Part shown: in pieces, positions 2,661 to 34,102 of the stretch
How positions within the stretch are numbered: the first letter of the stretch is position 1
How the letters are laid out: each line of letters begins with the position of its first letter
Position numbers and translations under genes: made by a program
The notes under the pieces: model-generated
Database searches by the model: none
Seen by the model: only the letters and a program-made list of their open reading frames with translations
What the model was told of the DNA's origin: nothing
Source of the DNA: a virus
Reading direction: 5' to 3' (one strand)
IMG/VR virus record: IMGVR_UViG_3300032087_005129
DNA: 64,000 nt

Positions 2661-3653
2661 TTATCTGATAATCTCAAACTCAGGTGGCAAGTCTTCACCC
2701 ATTAGATATCTAATTAGAGCACCGAATGGTGTGTCAGGATCCCCAAATTGTGGCGCCGTAAAGTTTTCATAGAAAGTTTCTAAATTACGAATTACTTCTT
2801 CTCTAACGTCGGCGGGTAAATCTACGGTGTCAAGTAGATCAACCATATCACTCATCATGTCTGTAAGTTGTGCGTGATACCTAATCATATTTTCTAGAAT
2901 GCCAACTACATTACCTGAGTTGATAGATTCAAGAAGTTGATCTCGTATCACTCTCATCGCATCTGCATTTGCTCCTTCACCTCCAAGACCAAGTAGTATG
3001 CTTTGAAGATTGCCAAGTTCGTCAAAAATGTATCTTGGTGGTTCTGGTTCAATGCCTGCAAGATCCTCCATAATTTTGTTAAATGGACCATTTTCTCCGA
3101 TCCAACCCATCCAATCTCTGTACACATCAAATGTTATTTGAGCATTAATTTTGATATCGAGTCTTTCGACGGTGAGTCCGTAACGCAAGGCAAGAAACTG
3201 TAGTAGTTCTGCTGGATTCATATCGCTGTAACTGGTTATTAATTCAAGAAGTCTTGTTGGGTTTCCTAGATTTACTTGGACATCTGTGCCAAAATCTCCT
3301 AAAAGTCTTAGGTGTCTTAGAAGGTCATTTAATTGTTGACTGGTAATTTCTGATGAAGAGCCAGTGGATTTTATAAATTCAGAAAACTGACGGAAGAACG
3401 CCGTTTTTATTGGACTGTTTGGTTGATCTCTATAAATTTGAGCAATCAAACGAATCATGTCCCCAAAGAAACCACTTTGAGGAATTGTAGTGTCAATATC
3501 TGGAATAGGAACAAACTGGCCAGTTGGGGTTCTTCCCAATTTTGGTGGTTTTGGTCGAGGACCAGGACGAATCGGTGTCGGTCTTCCACCAAAATTTCTT
3601 GGTGGTGGTATCGTTACTTCTTGTAGTAGTAGTAGTCTTTGTTTCCAATGCAT
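2661..3653 (-). CDS. Hypothetical protein, paralog of 1591..2634; putative head-packaged protein
   Basis: Identical 12-aa leader and colinear similarity to 1591..2634. Confidence 0.8.
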   Translation of the reverse strand: MHWKQRLLLLQEVTIPPPRNFGGRPTPIRPGPRPKPPKLGRTPTGQFVPIPDIDTTIPQSGFFGDMIRLIAQIYRDQPNSPIKTAFFRQFSEFIKSTGSSSEITSQQLNDLLRHLRLLGDFGTDVQVNLGNPTRLLELITSYSDMNPAELLQFLALRYGLTVERLDIKINAQITFDVYRDWMGWIGENGPFNKIMEDLAGIEPEPPRYIFDELGNLQSILLGLGGEGANADAMRVIRDQLLESINSGNVVGILENMIRYHAQLTDMMSDMVDLLDTVDLPADVREEVIRNLETFYENFTAPQFGDPDTPFGALIRYLMGEDLPPEFEIIR

Positions 3654-6573: not shown

Positions 6574-7107
6574 TTACATAGGTGGTTGCATTCCGCCACC
6601 AAAACCGCCGCCTGGTCCTTGTTGAATGCCAGGTCTGTTTGCTTGACGCGAAGGACGAGCAAAGTTTGTTCCTGGTCTAATCGTTGAACGTTGAGGTGGT
6701 CGAGGTCCTGCTGGTTGACCACCAGGATTCGGCACTCCAAAGAATTGACCAAGAGCATCAAAGTCAAATTCAACTGTTGGGGGGTTTGTTCTTGCTACAA
6801 CAAGGAATGGTGAGCCATCCATGATATTAATGAAAACGCCACTTGGCAATTGAAGAAGACCAGGAGAACCCTGTCTTATTGTATAATTTATTAAGGCACC
6901 ATATGTGTTGTTTTCACCAAGAAGGCTCAGAATAAACGTATAGTCGTTGAAGTCGAGTGTTCCGTTTCCACCAATTGTTGTTGTTGTGCCACCAGGTGCA
7001 CCACCACCGAATTGTTCTGAAAGATGTGTTGTCTCTTCAAGACCGGCAGCGTATCCTTTTGCATACGCTTCATTAATTCTTTTTTGTAATCGATTATCTC
7101 TGCTCAT
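6574..7107 (-). CDS. Gly/Pro/Arg-rich hypothetical protein with EAY.KGY leader and a dockerin-like motif
   Basis: RINEAYAKGY leader; GNGTLDFNDYTFILSLLG; AATAAATA at 7132..7139 upstream. Confidence 0.75.
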   Translation of the reverse strand: MSRDNRLQKRINEAYAKGYAAGLEETTHLSEQFGGGAPGGTTTTIGGNGTLDFNDYTFILSLLGENNTYGALINYTIRQGSPGLLQLPSGVFINIMDGSPFLVVARTNPPTVEFDFDALGQFFGVPNPGGQPAGPRPPQRSTIRPGTNFARPSRQANRPGIQQGPGGGFGGGMQPPM

Positions 7108-7140: not shown

Positions 7141-7746
7141 TTACATGATTTTTGACACATGCTGATAGATTCGAGCAGAGCATTTTTCATGCGGTTTACA
7201 TCGAAATGTTTTAGGCATCATTTCTGGATCAATCAAAGTAGACCACCTTGCTTTTGGCCATCTTTTTTCTTGAAACGAAACCCAATGTGAGTACAAATAT
7301 GCATTTGCACGAACACGAAAGGTATTTATCTCATTCTGACACTGAAGAAGGCCATACTCTTGTAGCAATTTTTCTGTTCGAATTTCGCAGTCTCGTTCCA
7401 TTTCGATTACTTTTTTCATTGCATCAAAAGCAAGATCTTTATCATCATGTATACCATTCACCCATTCGAGAAATACCATACATGGACATCGACCGTCTTC
7501 TGTTTTTGCTGTGTATTTTGGCTCACCTTCAAGCCACTGACACATGTGGCAGTATTCATGTGCAAGTGTTTGCACCCACTTGCTTGATTTTTTTGCCACT
7601 ACGAGAGATGTCTCATCGAAATAGCCTGATGCTCTGCAACGCTCACCTGTATTTACTGCCTGGTGATTAGAAAGAACAAAGCGAATGCCGTGTTCTTTGC
7701 ATTCGCTTCGTACATAATCGATGAGTTTTTTCTCTTCTGAGAGCAT
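7141..7746 (-). CDS. Zincin-like HExxH metallopeptidase-domain protein
   Basis: LAHEYCHMCQW plus downstream E.DCE. Confidence 0.7.
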   Translation of the reverse strand: MLSEEKKLIDYVRSECKEHGIRFVLSNHQAVNTGERCRASGYFDETSLVVAKKSSKWVQTLAHEYCHMCQWLEGEPKYTAKTEDGRCPCMVFLEWVNGIHDDKDLAFDAMKKVIEMERDCEIRTEKLLQEYGLLQCQNEINTFRVRANAYLYSHWVSFQEKRWPKARWSTLIDPEMMPKTFRCKPHEKCSARIYQHVSKIM

Positions 7747-7754
7747 ATAATTAT

Positions 7755-8861
7755 TTATGTTTGGCGATCACCTTTTGCAACAGCATCACCAGATCTGTTG
7801 AAGTTGATCATTGTTTGTACTTCAAAGAATTCTTTTGGCAGTTTACCCTTCAAAACATCGATTAACACAGAGGGAACTCTAAGTTTACAGTCAAATGGCC
7901 TTTTGCCAACACGAAGAGATTCGTACTCTTCTTTGCCAACAGATTCGAGTGAATAACGATTAAGCAATTCTGAACTAAACACAAAGTCATCTGGTGTGTA
8001 ATCAATCTCTATGATGATTGGTATTCCTCTTTTTAGAAAAAGATCAACCATCGCAGACTGATATGATTTTTTGTCACGATTGATCAAAGCCTTGAAGTAT
8101 TTCTTGAACAAAGGCATCGATGCTTTTCCTGTTGGTGTCAAAATTGGATATTCTTTCTTCAATTGCTGCAACTCATCCCACCGCCCATAAGATTGATGAA
8201 ACATTTTCCACAAACGCTCTCCTGCATTTGGTAAGTGTGCCTTATTAGTGTTGAATTTTGCTATGGTGTTTTCGTTGTGAACACGAAAAGCGTTATCGAT
8301 GTTTACAGAGGCACCTGCGATTGCACCAGAAAACTCTAGAGCAATTTCTTCTGATATAGTCCAACTTTCAAGTTCTCGTTTCGGTGTGTATCTAAATTTT
8401 TTGACTGCGGTGTTGCCTTCGATTTTGAACTTTGATGGATCACGAAAAAGTTTCATTACATTTTTTCTCATTTTTTCATCGACGCCATATTCTGACATCA
8501 CAATATTTTCCATATTGATACCACGATACAAAACTTTTGATTCTGGAATCAAGTCTTGAGGAAAAACATTTCTAAACTTTTGAAATATGTTGAAGAATGA
8601 AGATGGAAATTTCAAATCGTTGTGACGAACCCATATGTTCATAACATACTCGAAGTAGTCTTCAATGGGTGTGTTTCTTTCTTTGTCTCTTTTGAGTTCA
8701 CCAAAAAAGATTTTACCAAATGCTTCACGAAAATCTTTCTCCGTTTTGATCAGAGATAAAACTTCTTTTGCGGCTTTACTATCCCGAATCTTTGTTAATG
8801 GACTTGCATAGTCGGCTTCAGGATCATAATCATCAGTTAGATAATTGAAGAATTTTTTCAT
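7755..8861 (-). CDS. Putative ADP-ribosyltransferase-fold protein (Alt-like), likely head-packaged
   Basis: LYRG ... ESWT ... EEYE matches the R-S-E ART signature; leader MKKFFNYL. Confidence 0.55.
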   Translation of the reverse strand: MKKFFNYLTDDYDPEADYASPLTKIRDSKAAKEVLSLIKTEKDFREAFGKIFFGELKRDKERNTPIEDYFEYVMNIWVRHNDLKFPSSFFNIFQKFRNVFPQDLIPESKVLYRGINMENIVMSEYGVDEKMRKNVMKLFRDPSKFKIEGNTAVKKFRYTPKRELESWTISEEIALEFSGAIAGASVNIDNAFRVHNENTIAKFNTNKAHLPNAGERLWKMFHQSYGRWDELQQLKKEYPILTPTGKASMPLFKKYFKALINRDKKSYQSAMVDLFLKRGIPIIIEIDYTPDDFVFSSELLNRYSLESVGKEEYESLRVGKRPFDCKLRVPSVLIDVLKGKLPKEFFEVQTMINFNRSGDAVAKGDRQT

Positions 8862-9187
8862 CGCATTTTCTTTTTGAGATTTGTGAACTTTCTTTTGACT
8901 GATGGTGTCTTCATTTCTTTTTCAACGGCTGTGATTGCATCGACGAACAAACGAACGATACCATCGTCGCTCATTTCTCGTGCAAGGTAATCTGTATCAC
9001 CTTTCTTTTCAAGCCGATCAGCAAGATTGCGAAGTCTTTTTGCGACCTGACTGTTCAATGTTTTGAGTGTCATTGAACCATATCCACGAACAAGAATGTT
9101 AGGATTGTCTACGTCACCGATGTTGCTGAAGTCTATTCTTCCTGCTGGTTGACTTTGTTCGTAGAGGTAGTTGTAGAAGTCTTTCAT
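8858..9187 (-). CDS. Hypothetical protein with capsid-targeting-like leader
   Basis: MKDFYNYLYE resembles T4 IPII/IPIII MKTYQEFIAE. Confidence 0.75.
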   Translation of the reverse strand: MKDFYNYLYEQSQPAGRIDFSNIGDVDNPNILVRGYGSMTLKTLNSQVAKRLRNLADRLEKKGDTDYLAREMSDDGIVRLFVDAITAVEKEMKTPSVKRKFTNLKKKMR

Positions 9188-9504
9188 TTGTTCTTTTCTT
9201 TCGTTATCTTTTTCATCTTTTCAATGTACTTTCGATACACAGCGGCTTCTTCTTTCTTGCCCATCACCTTTGCTCTTTGTTCCATGGCGATTGCTGCTTG
9301 AATTTTATGAGCATGTGTTCGATTTGATGACTCAATTTTTTTGACTGATGCTTCGGCGGTTTTTACATCTTTAAACCCAAGACCGTGAATTGTTCCTTTT
9401 GGATTTTCGTCAGTGTAAAGATCGCTGTGAGTATCAGGGTCTTGATTCTTACGAGTCTTGGGTATACGCTTGCCTTCATCAAAATATTCTAGAAATGATT
9501 TCAT
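9184..9504 (-). CDS. Conserved phage hypothetical protein with capsid-targeting-like leader
   Basis: MKSFLEYFDE; SDLYTDENPKGTIHGLGFKD module. Confidence 0.75.
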   Translation of the reverse strand: MKSFLEYFDEGKRIPKTRKNQDPDTHSDLYTDENPKGTIHGLGFKDVKTAEASVKKIESSNRTHAHKIQAAIAMEQRAKVMGKKEEAAVYRKYIEKMKKITKEKNK

Positions 9505-9514
9505 GCGTGTGTCT

Positions 9515-12199
9515 TTATTTTTTTACGAAGTCTGATCTTTTCTTTGGTGGTCGACCTTTGATCTCATAGCCTCTGAGCAATTTTAACTCTATTTTTGCTT
9601 GTGTTGAAGCATGTGGAATGTCAGCCAAAGCAATAACTATCAAGTCGTTGTTAGAGTAGTTACTGATATAGCGAAGCATTTGCTTTACTGCACCAGGCAA
9701 ATCTTCTTTGTCACCTCTAAAGCCACCCTTGTAACTTTCATTGCCATACGCTTTACTTAGTTTCTTAATGTCTTTGTCGGTGTACAAATCTTTTTTGCTG
9801 TAGTGATCACTTTCATTGATGCTTTCATCCTGCGCACGTCTTACAGCATCCTCATGATCCCGGCGAATTTTTTCGTAATCTACATCAAAGAAATTCTTTG
9901 GAATTTTAATTGGTTTACGGTCTTCATCAGCAATATCTCGTATAAACTTTGCTTTTTTGTGTGCTTGTCTGGCCGTTTTTTCAATTTCTGGAGTTGCCTC
10001 GATTCTACGAAATTTACCACCAACATTTTTCAACACAGTTCCTAATAGTTCAATATGTTTGAGTGAAACTCCACGAACAGGCTTGTATTTAAAGGACACT
10101 TTTCTTCGTTGTATTGTGTAGTCTTTTTCTGACCTTACAATACCATAATCTTTAAGAAAATTAGCATATCTTTTTGGGTTATGCCAAGTATCTAACTCAA
10201 CTACAAAGGTGCTTGCTTTTTGCTCATTGATGCCCATGCTTTCCATGATATCATCAACATCAAGATACATGTCGGTTTGTGGATCGTAATACTTACCAGC
10301 CTTTCTATCATAGTAATAAATCAGACCCGTTTTCTTGGTGCGATACGGTCCTTCAAGACCTTCTCTTTCACGATTTGGGAAACGCTCGCGGTCGATAGGT
10401 GATACACGATTCTTGTTCTTGTATCTTCTATAGTGATCTCTTGCAGACATCTCATCAATTTGTAGGTCCTCATGCAATTCACCTTTGTATTGCTTTGCCA
10501 ACCTTTCAATATCGTTTCTCTCGTAGTCGTTTGGGTGCATGATGACTTGAACAATTTCTTCAGGACTTCTATCCCCGTCATATCGGTCTACTTCACTTGC
10601 GAGTTTATCTCGCATGATTCGTCGCATGAAGGCACCGGCTTTCATTGGGTTTTTAAATTTAAATTCTATTGTGCTGCCTTCATCAAGTTGCACAGACTCA
10701 CTGAATTCAGAAAATGAAACCTCGCTCACAGCCGAGATGCCGAATCGTCGTATCTCTGAACTAAACACTGCACCAGCAAACAACTTGTTTGCTATTTGAT
10801 GTGCTTTTTGATTATTCTTAAAGGAAACATAATAGGTATCTTCGACAGGTCCTTTTTGATTTCCAGCAACAAAGTGGAATTTTATGCCTGCTTTTTTAAG
10901 TTCTCGTTCGAACTCTTTTCGTTTTTTGGCATAATGTGCTTTGTCTTGTTTACTGGCATACTTGCCTGTCTTCATAAACTTATCATTGAACTCAACAATA
11001 TTAGCCTGCTCAAGTTTCATTACCTTATTCATCGCCTTAAGCAAATCTTTAGGTTTGAATTTATGAACGTTGTCTGCTCTTGCTTCGTAGTCACCATAGC
11101 CACTGAGGTTCATGTCATTCAGAACACCTGCAATCTCTTGCTTGGCTTTCTTGTTTAACCCCTTGATCATGCCTTGTATGTCACGGGCTGCTAGTCCTTC
11201 AAATTGAATTGGGGGACCACCAGGATTAACAAGTCCAGGTGCTGGTCTTCGACGACCAATTTCTCGACGGCCAGGACGATATTTTCCTGTTTTTTGTTTC
11301 TGAGCAACTTGAGGTAAAAATGGAAGAGTTGGATTTGTAAGACCTCCACCAAGAGGTCCTTGCTCATCAACATGCACAGATTCTCGATAAAAATCAGGAA
11401 CATTATTTTTTTTGAGAACCTGACCAACTTTTGCACCAGGAAGATTATCAACCATCTGACCAGGCTGCACTAATTTACGGGCTTGTTTTTCTGACAAACC
11501 AACACGAATGATGCTGCCGTATCTATCTACGATTGCAAAACTTTTCTTTCCATAGTAAGCAGAACTATTTTTTGGTGGGTTGTAAACTTTTGATTCATCA
11601 AGTTTCTTAGAACCTTCATAGATGGTATCGACCAATTTCAAGCCGTGCTTCTTGAGCAACTTCTCGAACCTCGGCCAATTTCCTCTTTCCTTACGAAATG
11701 TGAACACAGCCTTTTTCTTCCGAGATTGAAATACTATGTTATGAAGGCCAAGAAAACCTGGTAGTTTCTTAAGTTTGGGATCACGAGTAATACTCTCATA
11801 TGAGTTTTGATCAGCGTCTACAACAAACTTGACAGTCACATTATTTTCGTCAATCTGAACACCTTCTTTGATTGCGATGAGTTTAGCAGTTTTGCCACCG
11901 CCCAAGTCTTGTGTGTCACCAAGTTTCTTGATCTTTGGCCCCATCATCATATCAGCCACGGGGTGAACTTGAAAACCAAGTTCTCTACCACCATCAATAA
12001 AGTAAAAACCATCACCTGGTTTGGCGTGCTTATCGAAGTTTTTTAACATTTTTTTGTATTGTTTTTCAAAGCCAAACTTTTTGAGTTTTGCTAAAAAGAC
12101 TCTTGAGTCCATGTCGAAATCTTTGAACGCGGTTTTCACGGTTTCGTCGATGTGGTGATTTTTGCTTTCATTGAGTGTTTGTTTCATCTTCCAATGCAT
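9515..12199 (-). CDS. Multi-module putative polyprotein (head-packaged cargo)
   Basis: 894 aa; about nine repeats of a phi-x-E-x2-4-(I/L/V)-x-E linker between unrelated basic modules. Confidence 0.8.
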   Translation of the reverse strand: MHWKMKQTLNESKNHHIDETVKTAFKDFDMDSRVFLAKLKKFGFEKQYKKMLKNFDKHAKPGDGFYFIDGGRELGFQVHPVADMMMGPKIKKLGDTQDLGGGKTAKLIAIKEGVQIDENNVTVKFVVDADQNSYESITRDPKLKKLPGFLGLHNIVFQSRKKKAVFTFRKERGNWPRFEKLLKKHGLKLVDTIYEGSKKLDESKVYNPPKNSSAYYGKKSFAIVDRYGSIIRVGLSEKQARKLVQPGQMVDNLPGAKVGQVLKKNNVPDFYRESVHVDEQGPLGGGLTNPTLPFLPQVAQKQKTGKYRPGRREIGRRRPAPGLVNPGGPPIQFEGLAARDIQGMIKGLNKKAKQEIAGVLNDMNLSGYGDYEARADNVHKFKPKDLLKAMNKVMKLEQANIVEFNDKFMKTGKYASKQDKAHYAKKRKEFERELKKAGIKFHFVAGNQKGPVEDTYYVSFKNNQKAHQIANKLFAGAVFSSEIRRFGISAVSEVSFSEFSESVQLDEGSTIEFKFKNPMKAGAFMRRIMRDKLASEVDRYDGDRSPEEIVQVIMHPNDYERNDIERLAKQYKGELHEDLQIDEMSARDHYRRYKNKNRVSPIDRERFPNREREGLEGPYRTKKTGLIYYYDRKAGKYYDPQTDMYLDVDDIMESMGINEQKASTFVVELDTWHNPKRYANFLKDYGIVRSEKDYTIQRRKVSFKYKPVRGVSLKHIELLGTVLKNVGGKFRRIEATPEIEKTARQAHKKAKFIRDIADEDRKPIKIPKNFFDVDYEKIRRDHEDAVRRAQDESINESDHYSKKDLYTDKDIKKLSKAYGNESYKGGFRGDKEDLPGAVKQMLRYISNYSNNDLIVIALADIPHASTQAKIELKLLRGYEIKGRPPKKRSDFVKK

Positions 12200-12229: not shown

Positions 12230-12237
12230 TATTTATT
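12230..12237 (-). promoter_or_regulatory. Late promoter AATAAATA (leftward)
   Basis: TAAATA core upstream of the 894-aa ORF. Confidence 0.65.
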
Positions 12238-12344: not shown

Positions 12345-12707
12345 ATGCATTATCTACAGAAACAACTTCTTGAAGAAGAGAAGAAAAAAGCCAAACTGAA
12401 TGCTGGTCATTGCAAGACCGAAGGAAAGAAAAAGACTAAACTGAATGCTGGTCATTGCAAGACTGAATCTGAAAAACTTGATGAGCAAAAAGGTCAAAAG
12501 TTTAACTTTGCAAGAGCAAGAAAAGTGTTCGAGAAGCACTGGCGCGAAATGGAAAGAAAAGTTGTCAATGAACTTGTTCAACCATACGAGGGTCGAGGTC
12601 CTGTGAATTATGATCTCAAAGCCGAACGTCAAGTCTCTGACTACTTTGAAACCAACACAGAAGATCTTCTTGATTACATCACAGAGAGATTCGAAGACCT
12701 CAACTAA
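12345..12707 (+). CDS. Hypothetical protein with a duplicated KKKxKLNAGHCKTE motif
   Basis: ORF with GGAG RBS; tandem 15-aa repeat; KLDEQ site. Confidence 0.75.
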   Translation: MHYLQKQLLEEEKKKAKLNAGHCKTEGKKKTKLNAGHCKTESEKLDEQKGQKFNFARARKVFEKHWREMERKVVNELVQPYEGRGPVNYDLKAERQVSDYFETNTEDLLDYITERFEDLN

Positions 12708-12723
12708 CTAGGGGATAGCATAC

Positions 12724-13005
12724 ATGAACTTTAAAGATAAACTACAAGAAGCATTCGAAGCAGGCTATCTTCAAGGTCTGAGCGAGTCTACTACTATTGA
12801 CACCTCATCATATCGCAGAAGTCACGGTAAGTCACCAAATCCAAATGAGTCAGGTGGCTGGTCTTTTGGCACGAAACCTTTCAGTCGATCTGATGATGAG
12901 ATTGTGTATGAATCGCCCAACAAGATGCCATATAAAGAGGCGAAAAAAGAAGCAGAAAAGATTGCAAAGAAAAAAGGTCTGAAAAAGATCTACGTTCAAT
13001 CGTAA
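12724..13005 (+). CDS. Small protein with MNFKDKLQEAFEAGY leader
   Basis: Leader shared with 13015 and 43575(-). Confidence 0.8.
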   Translation: MNFKDKLQEAFEAGYLQGLSESTTIDTSSYRRSHGKSPNPNESGGWSFGTKPFSRSDDEIVYESPNKMPYKEAKKEAEKIAKKKGLKKIYVQS

Positions 13006-13014
13006 GGAACAAAA

Positions 13015-13404
13015 ATGAACTTTGAAGACAGACTACAAGAAGCATTTAAAGAGGGCTATCGTCAGGCTATCAACGAGCAAAAGAAACCTCTTGGTCCGAG
13101 GAGGCCTGGTGCTTTACTCAAAAAGGCTTATAATCCCAGAAAGTATTTCACTGCACATGTCGAAAAAGAATTAGTTAGTGTGTATAAAAAACTCATGGCT
13201 CGCCTAAAAAGTGATTATGAAAAGAAAGCGTTTGAACAAACTTTTCCTTTTGAACTTGCTGATGAAATAAAGGAAAGAGTCGAGAATCTTTTCGATGGTT
13301 CTTCTATGAGAGATGAACTGATTGATATGTATCGCAATGACTTCAAGAAAAGGGATAGACTCAAGGATTATGACAATAGGGTAAGACATGGATTTCGTAG
13401 GTAA
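13015..13404 (+). CDS. Small protein with MNFEDRLQEAFKEGY leader
   Basis: Leader family; AINEQ site; AAGGA RBS. Confidence 0.8.
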   Translation: MNFEDRLQEAFKEGYRQAINEQKKPLGPRRPGALLKKAYNPRKYFTAHVEKELVSVYKKLMARLKSDYEKKAFEQTFPFELADEIKERVENLFDGSSMRDELIDMYRNDFKKRDRLKDYDNRVRHGFRR

Positions 13405-13413
13405 GGAACAAAA

Positions 13414-13764
13414 ATGAAAAATCTAGAATCATCAATTCAAAATATTCTCAATGAAGAGTACATTGAAGAAAACATCGACAAAGTAAAAGATCTCTATGAC
13501 AATCGAAACATTGTTTCTACACTTAAAGAGGGTGATAGTATCTTTGTTGGTTTTGAATACATCAAACACGATGGATCATCAGAAACAAAGGGGAAGATTT
13601 TTATTGTAGATCAAGTCGAGACATTAAGGAATGGCATAATTAGGGTTTTTCTTGATCATCGAACTTCTGACGATTACGTTCTATTCCTTGATAAAAAAGG
13701 CATGTTGGTTTTTCGGAATCCAAATGGTATGAGATTAGTAGTAAGTAGTATTTCAAAGAAATGA
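13414..13764 (+). CDS. Small protein with MKNLESSIQNILNEE leader
   Basis: Leader similar to 13761; AAGGA RBS. Confidence 0.75.
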   Translation: MKNLESSIQNILNEEYIEENIDKVKDLYDNRNIVSTLKEGDSIFVGFEYIKHDGSSETKGKIFIVDQVETLRNGIIRVFLDHRTSDDYVLFLDKKGMLVFRNPNGMRLVVSSISKK

Positions 13765-14699
13765 AAAGACTTGAATCAACAATCCGTGGCTTGATCAACG
13801 AAGAGACCATTACAGAAGGTGGTCATCACGACGTTATATCTGCCAAGAATCAAATTAAAATTGCTCGTGATGCATTAGACAAGATGGAAAGAGGACTGTC
13901 AGGGCTTGACGATGAAGGCTCACTACCTTCATGGTGGACAAACAAAGTCGCAATTGCTGTTGACAAACTTGATGGCATGGCAGATTATCTTTCAACACAG
14001 ATCAAAGAAGAAACTATCTCAGAAGCAAAGCGTGGCCGAATCAACGCAGAGTACATATTTCCTCTTCGAACGAAGGCTGCCGTAAAGAGTTTCATTCGAG
14101 ATATTGATGCTGTTGCTGATCGTGTTCGAAATCAAATGCCAGACAAAAGAATCGTAAAGGCTCTTATGATCTATAGAGATTCGAGCAGCACAACGAATAA
14201 TGAATTTAACCCGCCAAACGATAAAGAATATTTCGTGACTGTTCTTGTGACAAGCAAAACTCTTGAACTTGATGAACTCAAAGAGGTTGATCGTTACTTC
14301 AAAGAATTCAAGAAGGGCCTTCTCAAAGCAGCCAAAAGTGATAATCGTATCATTGTAACTGCCAAAGTCAAAAAGAAACTTGGCGAAGCAGCCATTAATG
14401 AAAACCTTCAGAGCATGGACAATGACAAAGCAAAAGACATCTATGACAAACTTCGAAAAGGTAGTATCGTAGAAGTCAAGATCGGTAATGCTATTGCAAG
14501 CCAATTAAAGCCAATTCGCCTTGTAGTTACTAGTGGTCATCGTATTGTAGGTAAGTCAAAAGTAGGACGTATTATTCTCGTAGATGAAAAGAATCCACGT
14601 GGCATGAAATACAAACTATTTGATCGAGATGGTACAATTCGCCTTGCTCAAAGTGATATGGCAACCATTCTCAAAGACATGAAGATAGTCAAGAAGTAA
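13761..14699 (+). CDS. Three-module putative polyprotein
   Basis: Linkers LINEETITE, IKEETISE, LGEAAINE. Confidence 0.75.
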   Translation: MKRLESTIRGLINEETITEGGHHDVISAKNQIKIARDALDKMERGLSGLDDEGSLPSWWTNKVAIAVDKLDGMADYLSTQIKEETISEAKRGRINAEYIFPLRTKAAVKSFIRDIDAVADRVRNQMPDKRIVKALMIYRDSSSTTNNEFNPPNDKEYFVTVLVTSKTLELDELKEVDRYFKEFKKGLLKAAKSDNRIIVTAKVKKKLGEAAINENLQSMDNDKAKDIYDKLRKGSIVEVKIGNAIASQLKPIRLVVTSGHRIVGKSKVGRIILVDEKNPRGMKYKLFDRDGTIRLAQSDMATILKDMKIVKK

Positions 14700-14994: not shown

Positions 14995-17331
14995 TTAGGA
15001 AGCAACCGCCGCAATGAATTGATTGGCGAACACGCGGGCAGCCTTGCCGCCACCCAGTTGCTTCTTGAAGGCATTCTTGACTGACTTCAAGCCAGCATTC
15101 TCTTTCAGCCCTTCGAGAGCCTCAGAGTTGTCTTCAATACTGATGTTCTTGGATTCGATTGTGAAGTGAACATCGAAATTCTTGTGATTGTCACGCTTGA
15201 TGAAGCCAGTCTCGGAGAAGTTTTTCAACTGCTCTTCGGACAGGCCCATGCGTTGGAGCCACCACTCACTCGTTTCGCCTTCAGCAGCCTCCTTCATCGC
15301 CTTTTTCAATTGACTCTGGCTGCGGAAGTTGCTGGCGAGATGAATGCCGATCAGATTAGCGCCAGTACGATCACGAATGACTTCGAGCAATGCTTCATCG
15401 CCGTGATTGAACCACTTACGACCTTGAGCCGCATAAGAACTCAATGGGTACAAGTTGCCAGTCACGGGATCACGCAATACGACCTTCTTCGATTGGCCGT
15501 TTTCATCCCAACGAACATAACTCTCATTGCGAATCACTTTCGTTCCGTCGCCGTCAGTCAGAAACAGGACGTTGGTGACTTGCACGCCAGTCTGCTTTTG
15601 AAACTGAGGAACGAGATGAGCGGCCGAAAGCATCGCCTCTTGAAGTGGCGTGCCAGTCAGACCGATCCAGCGAGGTGGGTGACAATCAGAGTAGTGCAAA
15701 CGATTCTTGGCATTGCCGCAATAGTAGTCACGAATGGTCAACAGGTTGCGCCAGCATTGACGCCACTTCGCACCCTTCAAGGATGTCGAAGCAAACTGCC
15801 AAAGTTGAAATTGATTGTTGAATTCATTGCCAGCAAACTTCGATGACCAAAGTTGACGATTGTTTTCATCATCTTCGGGACGGAACGGGTTGCCGTAATA
15901 GCCAGGATCAGCGAAGGCGTAAACTTCACAAGGCAAGCCAGCCTTCTTGCAGAAGGCAATCATATTCAGCAATTGGTCGAGAGTGTCACACATGTAATCA
16001 CTCATCGAGCCTGACCAGTCAAGGAAGAAAACGAAGCCGTGATTCTTGCCATCAGCAACCGTAGTGCGAGACAGGAAGATATTGTCATTGAACTTGTACT
16101 CGTGAAGACGATTCATGTTCAACATGCCAGTGCGAGACTCAGAAGTACGACGATGTTCATCGGCAGCCTTCTTCAATTCGAACTCTTTGACCATTGACAT
16201 GACCAAGGACTTGTTTCGTTTGTCCCAAGCCTTTTCACGCTCTTCTTGGCGATCATCAACAATGTGTTGAGTCAGTGTCTCATGCAACTTGCCAGCAGGA
16301 AGCACAATCTCAGACAGATCAGGAGTTGGCAGATCAAAAGTGCCGACTTGCATAGAGCCGTTCTCTTGTGAAGCCTGCTCAGACTTCGAACGCATTGCCT
16401 GATCGAAGTTTTCTTGAGACCAGCCAGGATCGCCCTTGCCGCCTTCGCCGTCAGCAGAGCCAGTGCTTTCAGTTGACTCGCCTTCATCGCTCTCGGCATT
16501 AGAGCCATCGTCGTTTGAATCTTCGCCTTCGAGAGAAGCATCGCCTTTGCTGTCGCCAGCATCGCCGTCGCTATCGCCTTCAGACTCAGAATCGCCAGAC
16601 TCAGAACTTTCTTGACCAGACTCAGAACCTTCTTGAGAAGAAGACTCACCAGTTTCGCCAGCCATGTCGCCAGCATCGGGGTTGTCACCACTCTCGACAT
16701 CAGAACTTACTTCTGGTTGCTTCTGGTCTTGGTTGCTCTTGGTGTATTCGAACAATTCTTGAGCCAGGGCTTCAACATCAGCCCAGGTATTCAATGAATC
16801 AAACTTCGAAAGCCAGACTTTTTCATCATCAGAGAACTGAACACCCGATTGGGTGCCAGCCTTGAAATGAATATTCAGTCGGTCGAGCAAATGGGCCCCG
16901 TCAGGTGACAGGTCCTTGTCAGAAGCACCGAAGAAGTCTTCCGCCCACAAGTGGCGATACCCATGCACGAATGAACGGCGAAGACCAGGATACTGTTTTT
17001 GAATCATTCGCTCGATCCGAACATCTTCAACAATGTTCAGACAAGTATGAGCCAATTTTTTGTCAGACGAGACTCCTTTAGAGACTCGCTTGACACCCTC
17101 AGACCAATCGTTGCTGTCGGTGTTGAGGGCATGAGAAACCTCGTGAGCAACGAATAGGTCGTAAACTTCGGAGGTCATGCCTTTCAACACTGGCAGAATC
17201 AACTCTCGATTCTCAAGGTCAAAAGCAGCAGTCTGGGCAGCCGAATCGTGCGTGACCTGAAGGTTCTCGCCAGCGAGAAGGCGGGCGAGCAGGTCTTTCG
17301 CAGTAGTGTTAGGGACTCGGGTACTCATCAC
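14995..17331 (-). CDS. CobT-like vWA-domain protein with N-terminal HExxH domain and acidic linker (MoxR partner)
   Basis: AHEVSHAL, NIVEDVRIE, MIDAS FLDWSGSM, TGTPL, FLTDGDG. Confidence 0.85.
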   Translation of the reverse strand: MMSTRVPNTTAKDLLARLLAGENLQVTHDSAAQTAAFDLENRELILPVLKGMTSEVYDLFVAHEVSHALNTDSNDWSEGVKRVSKGVSSDKKLAHTCLNIVEDVRIERMIQKQYPGLRRSFVHGYRHLWAEDFFGASDKDLSPDGAHLLDRLNIHFKAGTQSGVQFSDDEKVWLSKFDSLNTWADVEALAQELFEYTKSNQDQKQPEVSSDVESGDNPDAGDMAGETGESSSQEGSESGQESSESGDSESEGDSDGDAGDSKGDASLEGEDSNDDGSNAESDEGESTESTGSADGEGGKGDPGWSQENFDQAMRSKSEQASQENGSMQVGTFDLPTPDLSEIVLPAGKLHETLTQHIVDDRQEEREKAWDKRNKSLVMSMVKEFELKKAADEHRRTSESRTGMLNMNRLHEYKFNDNIFLSRTTVADGKNHGFVFFLDWSGSMSDYMCDTLDQLLNMIAFCKKAGLPCEVYAFADPGYYGNPFRPEDDENNRQLWSSKFAGNEFNNQFQLWQFASTSLKGAKWRQCWRNLLTIRDYYCGNAKNRLHYSDCHPPRWIGLTGTPLQEAMLSAAHLVPQFQKQTGVQVTNVLFLTDGDGTKVIRNESYVRWDENGQSKKVVLRDPVTGNLYPLSSYAAQGRKWFNHGDEALLEVIRDRTGANLIGIHLASNFRSQSQLKKAMKEAAEGETSEWWLQRMGLSEEQLKNFSETGFIKRDNHKNFDVHFTIESKNISIEDNSEALEGLKENAGLKSVKNAFKKQLGGGKAARVFANQFIAAVAS

Positions 17332-17335
17332 CTAG

Positions 17336-17363
17336 ATAATACATTCCCTGGCGGGTGTGTCAA
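17336..17363 (-). promoter_or_regulatory. Sigma70-type early promoter TTGACA-N16-TATTAT
   Basis: Near-consensus boxes immediately before the start codon. Confidence 0.7.
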
Positions 17364-17402
17364 GTCAATACACTAAAAAAGAACGATTTTTGCTGGGGTT
17401 CT

Positions 17403-17421
17403 ATTGAGAATGAGTCTCAAT
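17403..17421. promoter_or_regulatory. Palindromic operator, Fur-box-like
   Basis: ATTGAGAAT-G-AGTCTCAAT (9-1-9, one mismatch) between divergent promoters. Confidence 0.45.
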
Positions 17422-17469
17422 CTCAATTACGGAATATACGGAATATTGACATTTTTTTGAGATATTGAT

Positions 17470-17497
17470 TTGACAGACTAGTGGCATACTGTATAAT
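17470..17497 (+). promoter_or_regulatory. Sigma70-type early promoter TTGACA-N16-TATAAT
   Basis: Perfect -35 and -10 boxes. Confidence 0.8.
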
Positions 17498-17553
17498 CCA
17501 CTTGTGTCGGGGGCGATTGTCGCCCGTGACGTTTCCGTGTCTGAAAAAAAGGA

Positions 17554-18948
17554 GTGATTTCTACCGTGCCACGCCTAGTCGATAAATCTGAGTTCCTGAA
17601 TGCCGCTGCTGCGGCTGGGTTCTCACCCGAATCAACCATGACGCGGGCAGAAGTCAAACAAGTTTGTGCTGAGGCAGGGGTGACTCTTCCTCGGTGGCTC
17701 TTGAATGACGATGCTCACCGTGTCTCGCGTGGTGTTTACGCCCTCACTGCTCAGTCTGCTCCTGCCCCTGTGGCGGCGCCGACTGCACCTGCTCCCGTTG
17801 TCGAGGCTGTTTCAACTGCTACTGCTGCTGTTGAAGTTGTGTCTGAGATGGCTGGTCGGGTTGTTCCTGCCAAAATTCCTAACTACGTCCCGAATGGGCA
17901 TTACGGCGACATCAAGGCTATCCTTGAGTCTGGTCGTTTTTACCCTGCATTCGTGACTGGTCTTTCGGGTAACGGCAAGACTACCATGATCGAGCAAGTG
18001 TGTGCTGCTCTCAATCGAGAGTGTTACCGCGTCAACATCACTAATCTCACCGACGAAGATCAACTTCTCGGTTCGTTTGTCCTCGAAGATGGCAAGACTG
18101 TCTGGAAAGATGGCCCTGTTACTCTCGCTGCCCGTCGTGGCGCTGTGTTGCTGCTTGATGAATACGATCAAGCCACGGCGAAACTGATGTGTTTGCAGCC
18201 AGTTCTCGAAGGCAAGTCATTTATGATTCAGCGAATCAATGAAATCATCACGCCCGCTCCTGGGTTTACGATTGTCGCTACTGCCAACACTAAAGGGCAA
18301 GGCGATGATACGGGTCGATTCATTGGGGCCAACGTGATGAACGAGGCCACGCTTGATCGTTTCCCAGTTTGCCTTGAGCAAGCCTACCCTGCTCGTGCCA
18401 CTGAACGAAAAATCGTTGTTGGCATGATGAAGAATTTGGGCTGCGAAGATCGCAAGTTCGCTGACCTGCTGACCAAGTGGGCCGAGATGACTCGTGAGTT
18501 GTATTACGAGTCGGGCGAAGGCGAGATCATCACGACCCGTCGTCTTGAACACGTTGTCGGTGCGTTCGCCATCTTCGGTGATCGTATGAAGGCAGTCGAG
18601 ATGGCTACTGCTCGCTTCGATGAGGCGACAAAAGAAGCCTTCCGCGATTCCTATCGCGCCTTGGATGCAGAAGTTGACACGGAGACCGAGGCGGGTTCAG
18701 AACCCGCTTCGGCCACTTCTTCTCAATGTGGATCGAATCAACGTGTCCTCTTGAAGTGTTCATACAATGATCGTGACCAAGCGAAAGCATTGGGTGCCAA
18801 GTGGGATCCTAACTGTTCTTTCGGCAATTCGAAAGGCACCTGGGTTGTTGATAGCGAAGTCTACAACAAAGACCCTGAGGCATTCGATCAATGGTCGCCA
18901 ACGTTCGAAAATGTGAAGGAGTACCTGGGTTGCCCAGCACCTTTCTAA
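17554..18948 (+). CDS. cobS: CobS-like/MoxR AAA+ ATPase with C-terminal DUF5710-like domain (probable start GTG at 17566)
   Basis: Walker A GLSGNGKT, Walker B LLLDE, ATANTKG, NEATLDRF; C-terminal YNDRDQAKALGAKWD. Confidence 0.85.
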   Translation: MISTVPRLVDKSEFLNAAAAAGFSPESTMTRAEVKQVCAEAGVTLPRWLLNDDAHRVSRGVYALTAQSAPAPVAAPTAPAPVVEAVSTATAAVEVVSEMAGRVVPAKIPNYVPNGHYGDIKAILESGRFYPAFVTGLSGNGKTTMIEQVCAALNRECYRVNITNLTDEDQLLGSFVLEDGKTVWKDGPVTLAARRGAVLLLDEYDQATAKLMCLQPVLEGKSFMIQRINEIITPAPGFTIVATANTKGQGDDTGRFIGANVMNEATLDRFPVCLEQAYPARATERKIVVGMMKNLGCEDRKFADLLTKWAEMTRELYYESGEGEIITTRRLEHVVGAFAIFGDRMKAVEMATARFDEATKEAFRDSYRALDAEVDTETEAGSEPASATSSQCGSNQRVLLKCSYNDRDQAKALGAKWDPNCSFGNSKGTWVVDSEVYNKDPEAFDQWSPTFENVKEYLGCPAPF

Positions 18949-21820: not shown

Positions 21821-22288
21821 TTATTTTGGTTGAATCAAGTTCACGGTGAGTTGAATGAAATCATTTGACTCTTTGAGATTGGCTTTGTTTTGCCATTCAG
21901 CAGATTCTTTATCACTTTTGATCGGACCACCTTTTGCCCAAGTATGACATGATCTTGCAGAGTGACATTTGAAATGGTGCATCCAACAATAGCCAAGTTC
22001 ACCATCATCGTCGAAGGTGTCACCAGGCAAACAATCTTTCATTCGAGGTGAGATATCGAAAGCAACGCAGTTTCCACACAAAGATTTCTTGGCAGCCTTC
22101 TCAGTTGTCTTCCAATACTTTGCGATCTTCTCCCAGTAGTCACCAGGCTCGTCAACATTGAGAGGACCATAGTTGTACTTCTTGATCGTCGCATCACGAT
22201 TCTTTGTGTTGAGTTCTAGATCTTTTGCAGCAGGAGGACACTTGAGATCTTTTTCTTGCTCTAGCAGCAGACGTTGTGAAATGTGCAT
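21821..22288 (-). CDS. Cys/His-rich conserved phage protein with leader MHISQRLLLEQE
   Basis: CGNC...C...GYCWMHHFKCHSARSCHTW; ACTAAATA at 22324..22331 upstream. Confidence 0.8.
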   Translation of the reverse strand: MHISQRLLLEQEKDLKCPPAAKDLELNTKNRDATIKKYNYGPLNVDEPGDYWEKIAKYWKTTEKAAKKSLCGNCVAFDISPRMKDCLPGDTFDDDGELGYCWMHHFKCHSARSCHTWAKGGPIKSDKESAEWQNKANLKESNDFIQLTVNLIQPK

Positions 22289-25945: not shown

Positions 25946-26040
25946 GTAAGGTAAACTATGTAGGAGCAGAGGTGCTTGTCACCTCACGAGATGCCTTTCT
26001 CGATAAACAGGCTTTCCCAGTGACGGAGAGTGAAGTCACC

Positions 26041-26069
26041 AAACAGCGTCCTTGATGGACGCTGTTTTT
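26041..26069 (+). terminator. Intrinsic terminator
   Basis: AAACAGCGTCC-ttgat-GGACGCTGTTTTT. Confidence 0.75.
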
Positions 26070-26070
26070 G

Positions 26071-26078
26071 TATAAATA
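26071..26078 (+). promoter_or_regulatory. Late promoter TATAAATA
   Basis: Exact match, 5 nt before ATG 26084. Confidence 0.8.
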
Positions 26079-26083
26079 CTGGC

Positions 26084-27535
26084 ATGGCAGAATATCAAGG
26101 CAAAGAAGTAGAATTAGATAATCCTTTTCGCTTACCGAAAGGCTCAGACAAAAAGTTTGGCGTCTACGTTAAGAACAAAAAGGGTAATGTGGTCAAGGTT
26201 GAGTTTGGTGATCCAAACATGGAAATCAAACGTGATGACCCAGAAAGACTAAAGAACTTTCGTGCCAGACACAACTGCGATCAAAAGAAAGACAAGACAA
26301 AAGCAGGGTACTGGTCTTGCAAATTCTGGGAGAAGGGCAAGTCTGTGTCTGATCTCCTCAAAGACGAAAAAGAAGGATGTGGCTGCGGCTGCAATAGTTG
26401 TATGAAAGAACAAAAGATTCGAACACAGGTTGAGTTTGACACTCTCAAAGACGCTATAAAGAGCGTGAAGTTTCATCCAACAAGAGACAAGGGGCGTGAA
26501 GTCGCAATCTATCTAATTCCAGCATCAAAGAGAACGATGCGTACCTCAGCAGAAAGGCCGTCAGGAAAACAAGTGGGTTCTGTCGATTTCCTGAAAAAGG
26601 GAGTATACACCCCAGTCACCTTACCAAATGGGCCTTTCGAAAAGATTCTCAAGGCAAAAGGTGCAAAGCGTGTTGCCACAGTAAAGAACGTAGATGGCAA
26701 AACCAAAGTCTTCAAAGAACAAAAACTCAAAGCAACACCACAGAAAAAGTTTCGTGGTCGTTCGCCTGGTGTGAAGAAGACAACAGGTCACAGCCTACGT
26801 TTCAAAGTAACCTCTAAACTAGCACAGAAGATGCAAGAGATTCTGTCTGGCGAAGACAAGGCTGAACTCAAGAGATACAACCGTCTTGTCACAAGCACCG
26901 ACATTGACGGTGACGAAGTTGTTCTAACCTTTGGCTCTGCTGGGGCAAGAACAAAGGTGACACAGATGCTTAAAGAGTCGCAGGTAAACGAGACACGTTA
27001 TCCTAATGCAGCAGCCGCTCTAAGAGAACTTAAAGAATCTCATAGAGGTCTAGATGTTGAATACAGCAGAGGAACGCTTTTTGTTGAGTCTTCATCTTTA
27101 ACCATAGATACCATCACAACAAGAAACGTGGTTGCAAACACCGTTAAACGAATTTTTGAAAGAAATGGTGTTGATGGTATTAAAGTTGTGTTTGAAGACT
27201 TTAGACTAGAGGATCTGCAACTTGCACAATCAAGAGCAAGATTCTTTTCCGAAAAAAAAAATCCTAAAGACACAAAGTATTATACCAAATCGGGCAAGAT
27301 AAAGAAATCACCAGAAGACAAAGAAACTGGTTTGCCTAAAAAGTATGTTTCAAGAATGACAAAGGCTGATGCAAAACAAAAAGCAGCCGAAATCAAAGCA
27401 AGAAAGAAATTTGGCAAAGATGATCCTCGCAGATACGAACCAACCGATGTTGATAAGAAGTATGCAGGCACAGGTCAAAAATCAAAGCACACTAAGAAGT
27501 ATGAAAAAATGTTTGGAAAGAAGGGTAGCAAATGA
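26084..27535 (+). CDS. Multi-module basic protein, putative polyprotein
   Basis: Conserved phage module AEYQG...FGDP...FRARHNC...YWSC; linkers MKEQ, FKEQ, LKESQVNE, FSEK. Confidence 0.8.
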   Translation: MAEYQGKEVELDNPFRLPKGSDKKFGVYVKNKKGNVVKVEFGDPNMEIKRDDPERLKNFRARHNCDQKKDKTKAGYWSCKFWEKGKSVSDLLKDEKEGCGCGCNSCMKEQKIRTQVEFDTLKDAIKSVKFHPTRDKGREVAIYLIPASKRTMRTSAERPSGKQVGSVDFLKKGVYTPVTLPNGPFEKILKAKGAKRVATVKNVDGKTKVFKEQKLKATPQKKFRGRSPGVKKTTGHSLRFKVTSKLAQKMQEILSGEDKAELKRYNRLVTSTDIDGDEVVLTFGSAGARTKVTQMLKESQVNETRYPNAAAALRELKESHRGLDVEYSRGTLFVESSSLTIDTITTRNVVANTVKRIFERNGVDGIKVVFEDFRLEDLQLAQSRARFFSEKKNPKDTKYYTKSGKIKKSPEDKETGLPKKYVSRMTKADAKQKAAEIKARKKFGKDDPRRYEPTDVDKKYAGTGQKSKHTKKYEKMFGKKGSK

Positions 27536-27810
27536 ACTTTTTCGAAGGTAAAATCAAAGGTCTAACAAACAAAGCAAAAGCAACTGGTGTTCCATACAAC
27601 ATTCTAAAGAAAGTTTATGATCGTGGTATGGCAGCATGGACTGGTGGTCACAGACCAGGCATCGGTCAACACCAATGGGCGTTTGCAAGAGTGAACTCTT
27701 TTCTAACTGGTGGTAAAACACAGAAGACAGCCGACAAAGACTTGTGGGCTAAGGTGCCTGAGGGTGCTAAAAGAGGTGCGAAAAAGGGTGCAAAAAAAGG
27801 TAAGAAGTAA
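27532..27810 (+). CDS. DUF5824-like protein
   Basis: KVYDRGMAAW..GHRPG...QWAFARVNSF. Confidence 0.7.
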   Translation: MNFFEGKIKGLTNKAKATGVPYNILKKVYDRGMAAWTGGHRPGIGQHQWAFARVNSFLTGGKTQKTADKDLWAKVPEGAKRGAKKGAKKGKK

Positions 27811-28481
27811 TGTACTGGAAACAAAACAAAGATTATTTGAGTGAAAGTTATCTCGCCGAAAAAATTCCACCCCCGTTTAGAAGACCAGATTTTGATTCAA
27901 AACCTGGTCCAGCAAAAAAGCCTTGGTGGAAAAGATTGTTTGGTGATGGTAGACCGGTGAGAAGAACACCGCAGATCACAACGGCAAGCGATAATGATCG
28001 ACTTTTCGAATTATTTAGGCAACTCATGAGGGAAACAAATAGAACAGCAAGAAGAACCCGTTCCCTTGCGTATGAATGGTATCTTGTTTTGCGAGAATTA
28101 ACTAGCAGCAACAGTCAATCATGGCAAAGATTTCTTCGGGGGTTTGAACAGACAAACTGGCAATTTCAAAATCTTCCAGACGAAGTTCTTGGTTTTATAA
28201 ACAATGTGAATGATTATTTTGCAAATCTTCGTTCGGCACTTTCTCAATTTGCTAATGGTGAAATTTCATATGCCTCATTACATGAACAAATCGATGAAAT
28301 CATAGAACTTTTTGAAGAATTGAGAGGTGGTCGTTATTTCGATAGCAACCAAATGGCAAATGGTTATAATGTACCAATTTGGATGAGAGATGTAGATCCT
28401 GAAGTTTATGAGTACATTAGTCAGTTGTATGTGCTTCTAAGAGAACTTAAAAGAATTGACCAAAGAAACTTGTCAAGATGA
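27810..28481 (+). CDS. Hypothetical protein with MYWKQ leader and IPPP motif
   Basis: MYWKQNKDYLSESYLAEKIPPPFRR resembles the 1591/2661 N-termini. Confidence 0.75.
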   Translation: MYWKQNKDYLSESYLAEKIPPPFRRPDFDSKPGPAKKPWWKRLFGDGRPVRRTPQITTASDNDRLFELFRQLMRETNRTARRTRSLAYEWYLVLRELTSSNSQSWQRFLRGFEQTNWQFQNLPDEVLGFINNVNDYFANLRSALSQFANGEISYASLHEQIDEIIELFEELRGGRYFDSNQMANGYNVPIWMRDVDPEVYEYISQLYVLLRELKRIDQRNLSR

Positions 28482-28768
28482 ATCTAAAAAGTTTTAAAGA
28501 CCACTTCAACGAAGCCTGCTGGGATGGCTACAAACAAGTTGGTATGAAAAAGAAAGGCAAACGCATGGTACCAAACTGTGTGCCAGAGTCTTCAAAAACC
28601 AACGAAAGAAAACTTACTAAAGTCGAACTCAAAGATCGTGAGAAGTATGTCAAGAAGTTGAAGCCAAAACTCAAAGACTTCAAAAAAAGATATGGCGACG
28701 AAGAGGGCAAAGGCGTGATGTATGCCGTAGCCACGAACTTGGCAAAGAAAAAATCTAAAAAAGACTAG
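28478..28768 (+). CDS. Small basic protein with CWDGY...VPNCVP module
   Basis: Leader LKSFKDHFNE. Confidence 0.75.
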   Translation: MNLKSFKDHFNEACWDGYKQVGMKKKGKRMVPNCVPESSKTNERKLTKVELKDREKYVKKLKPKLKDFKKRYGDEEGKGVMYAVATNLAKKKSKKD

Positions 28769-33694: not shown

Positions 33695-34102
33695 ATGTCA
33701 GATTATGAAGATATTGTTGAGTCGCTGGTTGAAGTTGAACTTCCCGACTCCGATGCGTTTTTGAAGGTGAAAGAAACGCTCACCCGCATCGGCATCTCCT
33801 CAAGAAAAGAAAACAAACTTTGGCAGTCATGCCATATTTTACATAAGAAGGGAAAGTATTACATACTTCACTTCAAAGAACTGTTTTTGCTTGATGGAAA
33901 AAAAACTGATTTACCAGAAGAAGATATTGCCAGAAGAAATAGAATTATAAAACTACTCGAAGAATGGGAACTTCTTCGTATTGTTGATTCGTCAAAGATC
34001 GAAGAGCCTTGTGCTTCGATTGCACAGATCAAGATTCTACCTTTTTCTGAAAAGGAAAACTGGACTTTAGAAGCCAAGTATAACATTGGAAAGAAGAAAT
34101 GA
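33695..34102 (+). CDS. regA: Translational repressor RegA
   Basis: FLKVKETLTRIGI...LWQSCHILHKKGKYYILHFKELF. Confidence 0.96.
   Translation: MSDYEDIVESLVEVELPDSDAFLKVKETLTRIGISSRKENKLWQSCHILHKKGKYYILHFKELFLLDGKKTDLPEEDIARRNRIIKLLEEWELLRIVDSSKIEEPCASIAQIKILPFSEKENWTLEAKYNIGKKK

Follow-up and report, generated by a model that had tools for sequence, protein, structure and literature searches.

A candidate cargo polyprotein of a marine T4-like phage, built of exchangeable modules and a conserved junction peptide

Introduction

Why would a phage join ten small, mutually unrelated protein segments in one reading frame and set a recurrent acidic peptide between them? This question is raised by a gene for an 894-amino-acid (aa) protein in a viral DNA of 64,000 nucleotides (nt), IMG/VR record IMGVR_UViG_3300032087_005129. 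Hereafter, the window refers to this whole stretch of DNA, and the protein is referred to as the polyprotein. A preliminary description of the gene, made from its sequence, had proposed that a single leader loads the precursor into the prohead, where the maturation protease cuts it into small proteins. The modular anatomy, the conserved junction peptide, the shuffling of modules at the junction Glu and the positional equivalence of junctions with N-terminal leaders are observed directly. On these sequence grounds we favor, with moderate confidence, the view that an uncultured marine T4-like myovirus encodes a cargo polyprotein here, which would be packaged and cut at its junctions by a gp21-type head protease.

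Results

Modular structure and the junction peptide

Modules were delimited from the junctions and from homology borders (Table 1). The polyprotein consists of a 19-aa leader and ten modules of 54-137 aa. The modular chain of the preliminary description is thus retained, whereas its count of about nine modules is raised by a leader and by an extra border at residues 333/334. This border (..PPIQFE/GLAARD; here and below a slash marks the border) lacks a canonical double site, yet it is a real module border as judged from homology ends and natural deletion variants. The modules were described as unrelated to one another, and they are (best E 0.08 in all-against-all BLAST). The description of the segments as Lys/Arg-rich fits nine of the ten modules, which are basic (isoelectric point, pI, 8.9-12), but not the acidic module at 508-583 (pI 5.2). 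In size and charge these segments resemble the small basic mature proteins inside the T4 head. A precursor of the multi-core type known from ribosomally synthesized and post-translationally modified peptides was discarded as an explanation, since the modules, at 54-137 aa, are unrelated to one another and in part folded.

Each of the nine linker strings of the preliminary description is present in the 894-aa protein at the residues given there. The pattern E-x2-4-[ILV]-[DNVTES]-E occurs seven times, against a mean of 0.66 and a maximum of 5 in 2000 shuffles, and two looser copies raise the total to nine. The double form phi-x-E-x2-4-[ILV]-x-E, where phi is a hydrophobic residue, occurs six times versus 0.60 in shuffles. 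A double site in every linker had been proposed; the second site, [ILV]-x-E, is indeed universal, whereas the first lacks the P3 hydrophobic residue at 395-397 (KLE) and 790-792 (QDE). Among other open reading frames (ORFs) of the window the pattern is rare, except in a 312-aa protein (13761-14699) with three copies. Across the family, 670 junction-like windows yield the logo [ILMV]-x-E-[SDE]-V-[QE]-[LIV]-D-E, and typical strings are IAIKEDVQLDE, KMMNESVELDE and AKMFEDVQLDE. The codons differ among the nine junctions of the query (GAA/GAG, ATT/ATC/CTT, GAC/GAT) while the peptide is kept, which argues for selection on the peptide rather than on the DNA. The gp21 protease of T4 cleaves after L/I-x-E (PMC9026906; PMC3012670). 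Each junction fits this gp21-type rule in sequence by one universal match, usually accompanied by a second.

Exchange of modules at the junction

An exhaustive HMMER search (E ≤ 0.001) found 685 cluster representatives of 57-2803 aa related to the polyprotein, in which individual modules stand alone, are differently ordered, or have different partners. A word-indexed search gave 109 proteins of 500-1350 aa, mostly with one or two modules in common at 50-95% identity. BLAST matches begin and end at junctions (query residues 17-118, 110-202, 334-399, 501-583, 575-659, and 794-894). Junction zones account for 17% of the protein and receive 61% of the 576 internal alignment ends; given the non-independence of the relatives, the p-value for this enrichment is only indicative. 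In relatives at no more than 90% identity, 140 distinct module starts were compared: the P1 residue is Glu in 98 of them, and 94 (67%) directly follow hydrophobic-x-Glu, against about 2% expected from composition. Whole modules are inserted or deleted in the close relatives P0003 to P0008 compared with the query (P0001), and relatives have ..E-[SD]-V-x-L-D-E before module 1 in place of the query leader.

Stand-alone and reshuffled homologs, as the preliminary description anticipated, are therefore present in BLAST and HMMER searches, with borders at the linkers. Stand-alone proteins were found, for example, for module 1 (P0119) and for module 8 (P0165, P0204, and P0211). The GLEGPY module had been likened to a free-standing protein of marine phages, and residues ~584-659 do match phrog_13298 (E 1.3e-10). 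Module 8 also matches the 83-aa KVP40.0154 of Vibrio phage KVP40 and relatives in 48 Vibrio phage records, as well as many metagenomic proteins of 73-120 aa. The search for related loci returned nothing with a single protein, and the loci were obtained from the module 8 alignment.

Module content varies even within natural populations. Contigs of three DNA metagenomes (three studies) and of one RNA library were compared with the polyprotein gene. A joint from 11198 to 11364, found in all four runs, skips 165 nt in frame and removes exactly module 4, giving ..SVHVDE/GLAARD; the sequence shared at this joint is only 3 nt. A second joint, from 9812 to 10224 and found in one contig only, skips 411 nt in frame and removes exactly module 9, giving ..SMGINE/SDHYSK. 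This deletion spans a 10-nt microhomology between two junctions, and the same deletion is found in P0004-P0008. Since both deletions are exact and in frame, modules are gained and lost directly after the terminal junction Glu. Module order is accordingly not invariant, neither among relatives nor inside populations.

The microhomology at the module 9 joint, together with the many modules predicted to be disordered, is what one would expect if the protein were never cleaved and the acidic junction served as a flexible spacer and as recombination microhomology, for example in a DNA-coating or condensate-forming string of domains. Under such circumstances, however, one would not expect the junction codons to vary while the peptide is kept, nor a module 4 deletion sharing only 3 nt, and the conserved P3 hydrophobic residue and P1 Glu are the positions of a protease site. 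Moreover, single-module proteins keep a phi-x-E leader right before the module, which neither a spacer nor a recombination scar explains. We consider an uncleaved multi-domain protein unlikely.

Leaders in the place of junctions

A number of short ORFs in the window recur elsewhere as polyprotein modules, and in these ORFs a leader stands where the polyproteins have a junction (Table 1). For the module that contains KAKDIYDKL, the preceding triplet is INE/, VNE/, MNE/, MRE/, or LNE/ depending on the relative. Mutagenesis of the T4 capsid targeting sequence (CTS), MKTYQEFIAE, assigned targeting to residues 4 and 7 and processing to residues 8 and 10 (PMC9026906; PMC3012670). The stand-alone leaders match the T4 CTS at positions 4, 7, 8, and 10; consistently, the two neighboring genes 9184-9504 and 8858-9187 have aromatic residues at 4 and 7, a hydrophobic residue at 8, and Glu at 10. 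Because N-terminal leaders and junctions are interchangeable, the junction is probably a processing (perhaps also a targeting) signal and not a mere spacer. This equivalence is the strongest argument for such a signal.

Three classes of leaders recur on unrelated proteins of the window. Leaders of the form MKSF/MKDF/MKTY..phi-x-E are found on 9184-9504, 8858-9187, 7755-8861, 52441-53904, 34099-34623, and 28478-28768, MHWK/MYWK on 1591-2634, 2661-3653, 27810-28481, and 21821-22288, and MNFKDKLQEA(F/Y)EAGY on 12724-13005, 13015-13404, and 43051-43575. The closest match to the T4 CTS in the window, MKTYKDILKE, starts a 487-aa Gly/Asp/Pro-rich protein (52441-53904, plus strand). The leader of a 368-aa protein (7755-8861, minus strand), MKKFFNYLTDD, has Asp at position 10; in the T4 CTS, Asp at this position allows targeting and blocks processing. 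An identification of the 368-aa protein as an Alt-like ADP-ribosyltransferase received no support from PDB phmmer or Atlas feature searches. The DPDTHSDLYTDE..GTIHGLGF module at 9248-9495, inside ORF 9184-9504, stands out by a 5- to 40-fold increase in metagenome word depth, and many contigs covering it continue into unlike sequence. This module is evidently common to many different phages in the same samples.

Predicted structure

A single-sequence AlphaFold model of the polyprotein was uninformative (predicted local distance difference test, pLDDT, 40). With a 46-sequence alignment, the mean pLDDT was 56.9 and the predicted template modeling score 0.29, so that the model gives no overall fold. 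Modules 1, 2, 5, 7, 8, and 9 contain confident islands; modules 4 and 10 look disordered. The pLDDT falls below 50 at every junction (113-119, 196-, 267-337, 398-, 475-508, 578-583, 653-662, and 789-807). The model is in agreement with the independent, linker-bounded domains of the preliminary description, since the linkers lie between the confident islands and the protein is not predicted to fold as a single unit. Foldseek searches of PDB and BFVD returned generic ferredoxin-like folds and, for module 8, small viral OCRE-like proteins, with no functional assignment. Searches of Pfam, PHROGs, and PDB found no peptidase, enzyme domain, or function in any module.

A possible link to a head protease

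A Peptidase_S77 is encoded on three long IMG/VR contigs that have relatives of module 8. In one of them, G001, the homolog of the T4_CASP (gp22) scaffold starts with MATNNTEKEVQLDE/S, i.e., with the EVQLDE peptide at its N-terminus; a core-position protein encoded between the portal and protease genes contains SEEVEVDE, and the gp23 propeptide ends in ..FISE/A. EV(Q/K)LDE is kept at the N-terminus of the thirteen closest gp22 homologs. Double phi-x-E motifs number 696 in 120 gp22 homologs versus 219 in shuffles. Taken together, these data may connect the junctions to a T4-type head protease; the connection is circumstantial, supportive but weak.

The junction peptide shared by the polyprotein and a gp22 homolog could also point to a substrate of gp21 that is no cargo, namely an auxiliary part of the prohead core or scaffold that would be chopped and expelled before DNA packaging, like T4 gp22, gp67, and gp68. 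In T4, core proteins are indeed cleaved into numerous pieces, which exit the head (PMC9026906). On the other hand, the polyprotein has no Pfam match to T4_CASP (PF25623) or other core families and is not located in a head cluster beside gp21. Its modules, which are folded, basic mini-domains, are also encoded by separate genes behind CTS-like leaders, and their extreme variation between close relatives suits exchangeable cargo better than an assembly scaffold. A scaffold role therefore seems improbable to us.

The junctions might instead be cut by another protease, with the polyprotein acting in the cytoplasm and not being packaged. Candidates would be the SprT-like protein at 7141-7746, the CobT-like vWA protein at 14995-17331, or a host enzyme. 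The first has an HExxH motif and is encoded three genes downstream in the same array; a 'peptidase' of phrog_459 lies 2.8 kb away, and processing by metallopeptidases has been proposed for the polyvalent proteins of other phages (PMC5512222). Yet the 201-aa HExxH protein has one homolog near polyproteins in 80 related loci, its Pfam and PHROG matches are below threshold, cleavage after Glu with a hydrophobic P3 is the gp21-type signature (PMC9026906), and the same peptide is found at the N-terminus of the gp22 scaffold. We give cleavage by such a protease little credence.

Observations against a packaged, head-protease-cut cargo

A number of observations weigh against packaging and cleavage by a gp21-type protease. 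Head genes are absent from the window, and the polyprotein gene sits among replication-side genes, outside a head module. The N-terminus, MHWKMKQTLNE, is not a canonical CTS (L-N-E at residues 9-11, no aromatic residue at 4 or 7), which leaves the single loading leader of the preliminary description unsupported. Over contig G001 the junction-core motif has just 4 matches versus 1.5 expected, and the strict junction pattern is not significant (2 versus 1.5 expected). Part of the excess of double phi-x-E motifs in gp22 could come from coiled-coil periodicity. The AlphaFold dips at the junctions partly mirror breakpoints of the multiple sequence alignment and are not fully independent of the shuffling evidence, and a predicted helix of low confidence (383-411) crosses the junction at 395-403. 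In tblastn against cultured phages, module 8 alone was matched, in KVP40-like vibriophages, with no cultured relative of the whole polyprotein.

Phage context and expression signals

The window derives from a T4-like myovirus. It encodes a gp43-type DNA polymerase (phrog_262), ~50% identical to cyanophage polymerases, as well as a primase, ThyX, CobS, a CobT-like vWA protein, and five tRNAs. When 13 kb of the window were compared by megablast with 50,697 records of cultured phages, no close relative emerged, and tblastn against cultured phages gave no match for the paralogous neighbor 2661-3653 or for the family member P0016. The gene is nevertheless found nearly unchanged in seawater and marine metagenomes (18 DNA runs from nine studies, each with at least half of the sampled words). 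Contigs from one RNA library span parts of the gene, which is no proof of transcription.

The polyprotein gene is the first of a tight same-strand array and is followed by 9184-9504, 8858-9187, 7755-8861, 7141-7746, and 6574-7107. The octamer upstream of it (Table 1) is of a type that we take to be the T4-type late promoter mark, as in T4 and cyanomyoviruses. The window contains 8 copies of TATAAATA (1.56 expected), most of them a short distance 5' of ORFs, and the copies of NATAAATA are mostly 6-70 nt upstream of ORFs.

The array member 7141-7746 (minus strand) encodes a 201-aa protein with an HEYCH (HExxH) motif and sub-threshold SprT-like matches, a possible metallopeptidase. Divergent from the polyprotein gene, the 120-aa ORF 12345-12707 (plus strand) contains a tandem KKKxKLNAGHCKTE repeat followed by a junction-like ESEKLDE. 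Within 14995-18948, the gene of a CobS-like AAA ATPase (phrog_249) diverges from that of a CobT-like vWA protein, whose N-terminal part has an HExxH (phrog_459, annotated 'peptidase'); GC content is ~0.50 here versus ~0.39 in the rest of the window. A 383-aa low-complexity protein (53930-55081, plus strand) has long (M/Q)PGMP(K/Q) and QQAP repeats and a Gly-rich tail, and is preceded by a AATAAATA motif. The true start of the second polyprotein of the window (26030-27535) is probably the Met at residue 19 (MAEYQGKEVELD).

Table 1. Features of the polyprotein gene and of related genes; disorder and folds are predicted.
Feature	Coordinates	Strand	Description
Polyprotein gene (P0001)	9515..12199	-	intact ORF, 894 aa; Shine-Dalgarno-like AAGGA 8 nt 5' of ATG
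T4-type late-promoter-like octamer AATAAATA	12230..12237	-	31 nt upstream of the polyprotein ATG
Leader, aa 1-19	12143..12199	-	MHWKMKQTLNE-SKNHH-IDE; ends in junction-like pair LNE / IDE; conserved in P0002-P0006
Module 1, aa 20-118	11846..12142	-	pI 9.4; end IAIKE-GVQIDE; pLDDT 72-86, dip <50 at 113-119
Module 2, aa 119-202	11594..11845	-	pI 10.0; ferredoxin-like beta-alpha island; end TIYE-GSKKLDE
Module 3, aa 203-279	11363..11593	-	pI 9.7; end FYRE-SVHVDE
Module 4, aa 280-333	11201..11362	-	Gly/Pro/Arg-rich; pI 12; predicted disordered; end IQFE
Module 5, aa 334-403	10991..11200	-	helical; pI 9.0; end MKLE-QANIVE; pLDDT 83-93
Module 6, aa 404-507	10679..10990	-	pI 9.6; end FSE-SVQLDE
Module 7, aa 508-583	10451..10678	-	sole acidic module, pI 5.2; end LHE-DLQIDE
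Module 8, aa 584-659	10223..10450	-	Tyr-rich GLEGPY..YYYD..GKYYDP..DMY domain (phrog_13298, KVP40.0154-like, OCRE-like); end IME-SMGINE
Module 9, aa 660-796	9812..10222	-	pI 9.8; end QDE-SINE; missing from P0004-P0008 and one metagenome contig
Module 10, aa 797-894	9518..9811	-	pI 9.6; C-terminal, no junction behind
Next array gene, 106 aa	9184..9504	-	leader MKSFLEYFDE/GKRIPK (T4 CTS-like); same module internal in a 423-aa protein after ..TMAMFREFIE/SKRVPK
109-aa gene	8858..9187	-	leader MKDFYNYLYE/; same module C-terminal in 419-620-aa proteins after ..VHVEEDVQLDE/ or ..KQVTLDE/
Stand-alone leader MNLKSFKDHFNE/ACWDGY (KSFKDHFNE/ACWD)			fused counterparts ..NEDVEQVDE/ACWDSH and ..RIKSFKE/ACWDTH
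312-aa protein of the same kind	13761..14699	+	junction-like INE-ETITE, KE-ETISE, EAAINE; last module (aa 212-311) in 43 other polyproteins
Second polyprotein of the window	26030..27535	+	three segments match P0046/P0034 at 64-86% identity, in different order

Discussion

What we deduce from the locus, as opposed to observe, comprises late expression, packaging, cleavage, which protease is responsible, ejection, and any function that the modules may have. In the favored reading of a packaged cargo polyprotein, the precursor would be made late and enter the prohead core, where the maturation protease would cut after the junction Glu residues. The second site of a junction could trim the acidic tail or give redundancy; multiple redundant sites per propeptide are reported for phiKZ (PMC9026906). 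The released small basic proteins would stay with the packaged DNA and probably reach the host with it.

More tentatively, the family may represent a large cassette system not described before, in which hundreds of in-frame mini-protein modules would be exchanged between genomes by junction-to-junction recombination, seen in natural populations as presence/absence polymorphism, each module would end in a universal junction cuttable by protease, and one gene together with one head protease would deliver a customizable host-bound set of proteins. We hold this broader possibility with less confidence than the cargo reading itself.

If the junctions are head-protease sites, marine T4-like phages, which rank among the most abundant viruses of the sea, would use a polyprotein strategy otherwise associated with RNA viruses and load their capsids with small proteins whose set changes from one close relative to the next. 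Address, cut site, and cargo would then form a shared logic for 'dark matter' ORFs without function, and cargo gain and loss would be explained by in-frame cassette exchange at the junction. For the packaging of several foreign proteins into T4-type capsids, nature would thus have supplied a modular design. The polyprotein family is very large in marine viromes, and the hypothesis is sharp and cheaply testable.

Comparison with known systems

Literature searches turned up no account of polyproteins like these in marine T4-like phages, and the nearest published concepts lack concatenated, exchangeable cargo units bearing a conserved trans-cleavage junction. The internal proteins of T4 (IPI, IPII, IPIII, and Alt) are similar in that they belong to a T4-like phage, are small, basic, and highly variable, and follow a short peptide ending in hydrophobic-x-Glu; the neighboring genes of the window have very CTS-like leaders (MKSFLEYFDE versus MKTYQEFIAE). 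In contrast to the T4 proteins, up to ten putative cargo units are concatenated in one frame. Internal junctions replace the N-terminal leaders, the conserved double site is longer, and the N-terminus of the polyprotein itself is a non-canonical CTS.

T4 gp22, gp67, and gp68, which are cut at several L/I-x-E sites, share with the predicted scheme a single precursor with many Glu sites, and the EVQLDE peptide also starts the gp22 homolog on a related contig. They have, however, no sequence relation to the polyprotein, which consists of folded basic mini-domains that are also separate genes rather than of scaffold debris.

The inner-body and ejection proteins of phiKZ, 201phi2-1, and SPN3US, with the gp21-like proteases gp175 and gp245, provide a precedent for many head-internal proteins, cleavage after Glu, and redundant sites (PMC9026906, PMC5694885). 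In these giant phages the motif is S/A/G-x-E, and processing is mostly propeptide trimming, not division into unrelated exchangeable modules.

The polyvalent proteins of phages and conjugative elements (Iyer et al. 2017, PMC5512222) also combine many unrelated domains per polypeptide, with probable co-delivery with DNA and proteolytic release, and the ten modules without mutual similarity fall within their range of 2-15 unrelated domains. They contain recognizable enzymatic or anti-restriction domains and an embedded metallopeptidase, whereas the polyprotein has neither but carries a conserved junction for putative cleavage in trans.

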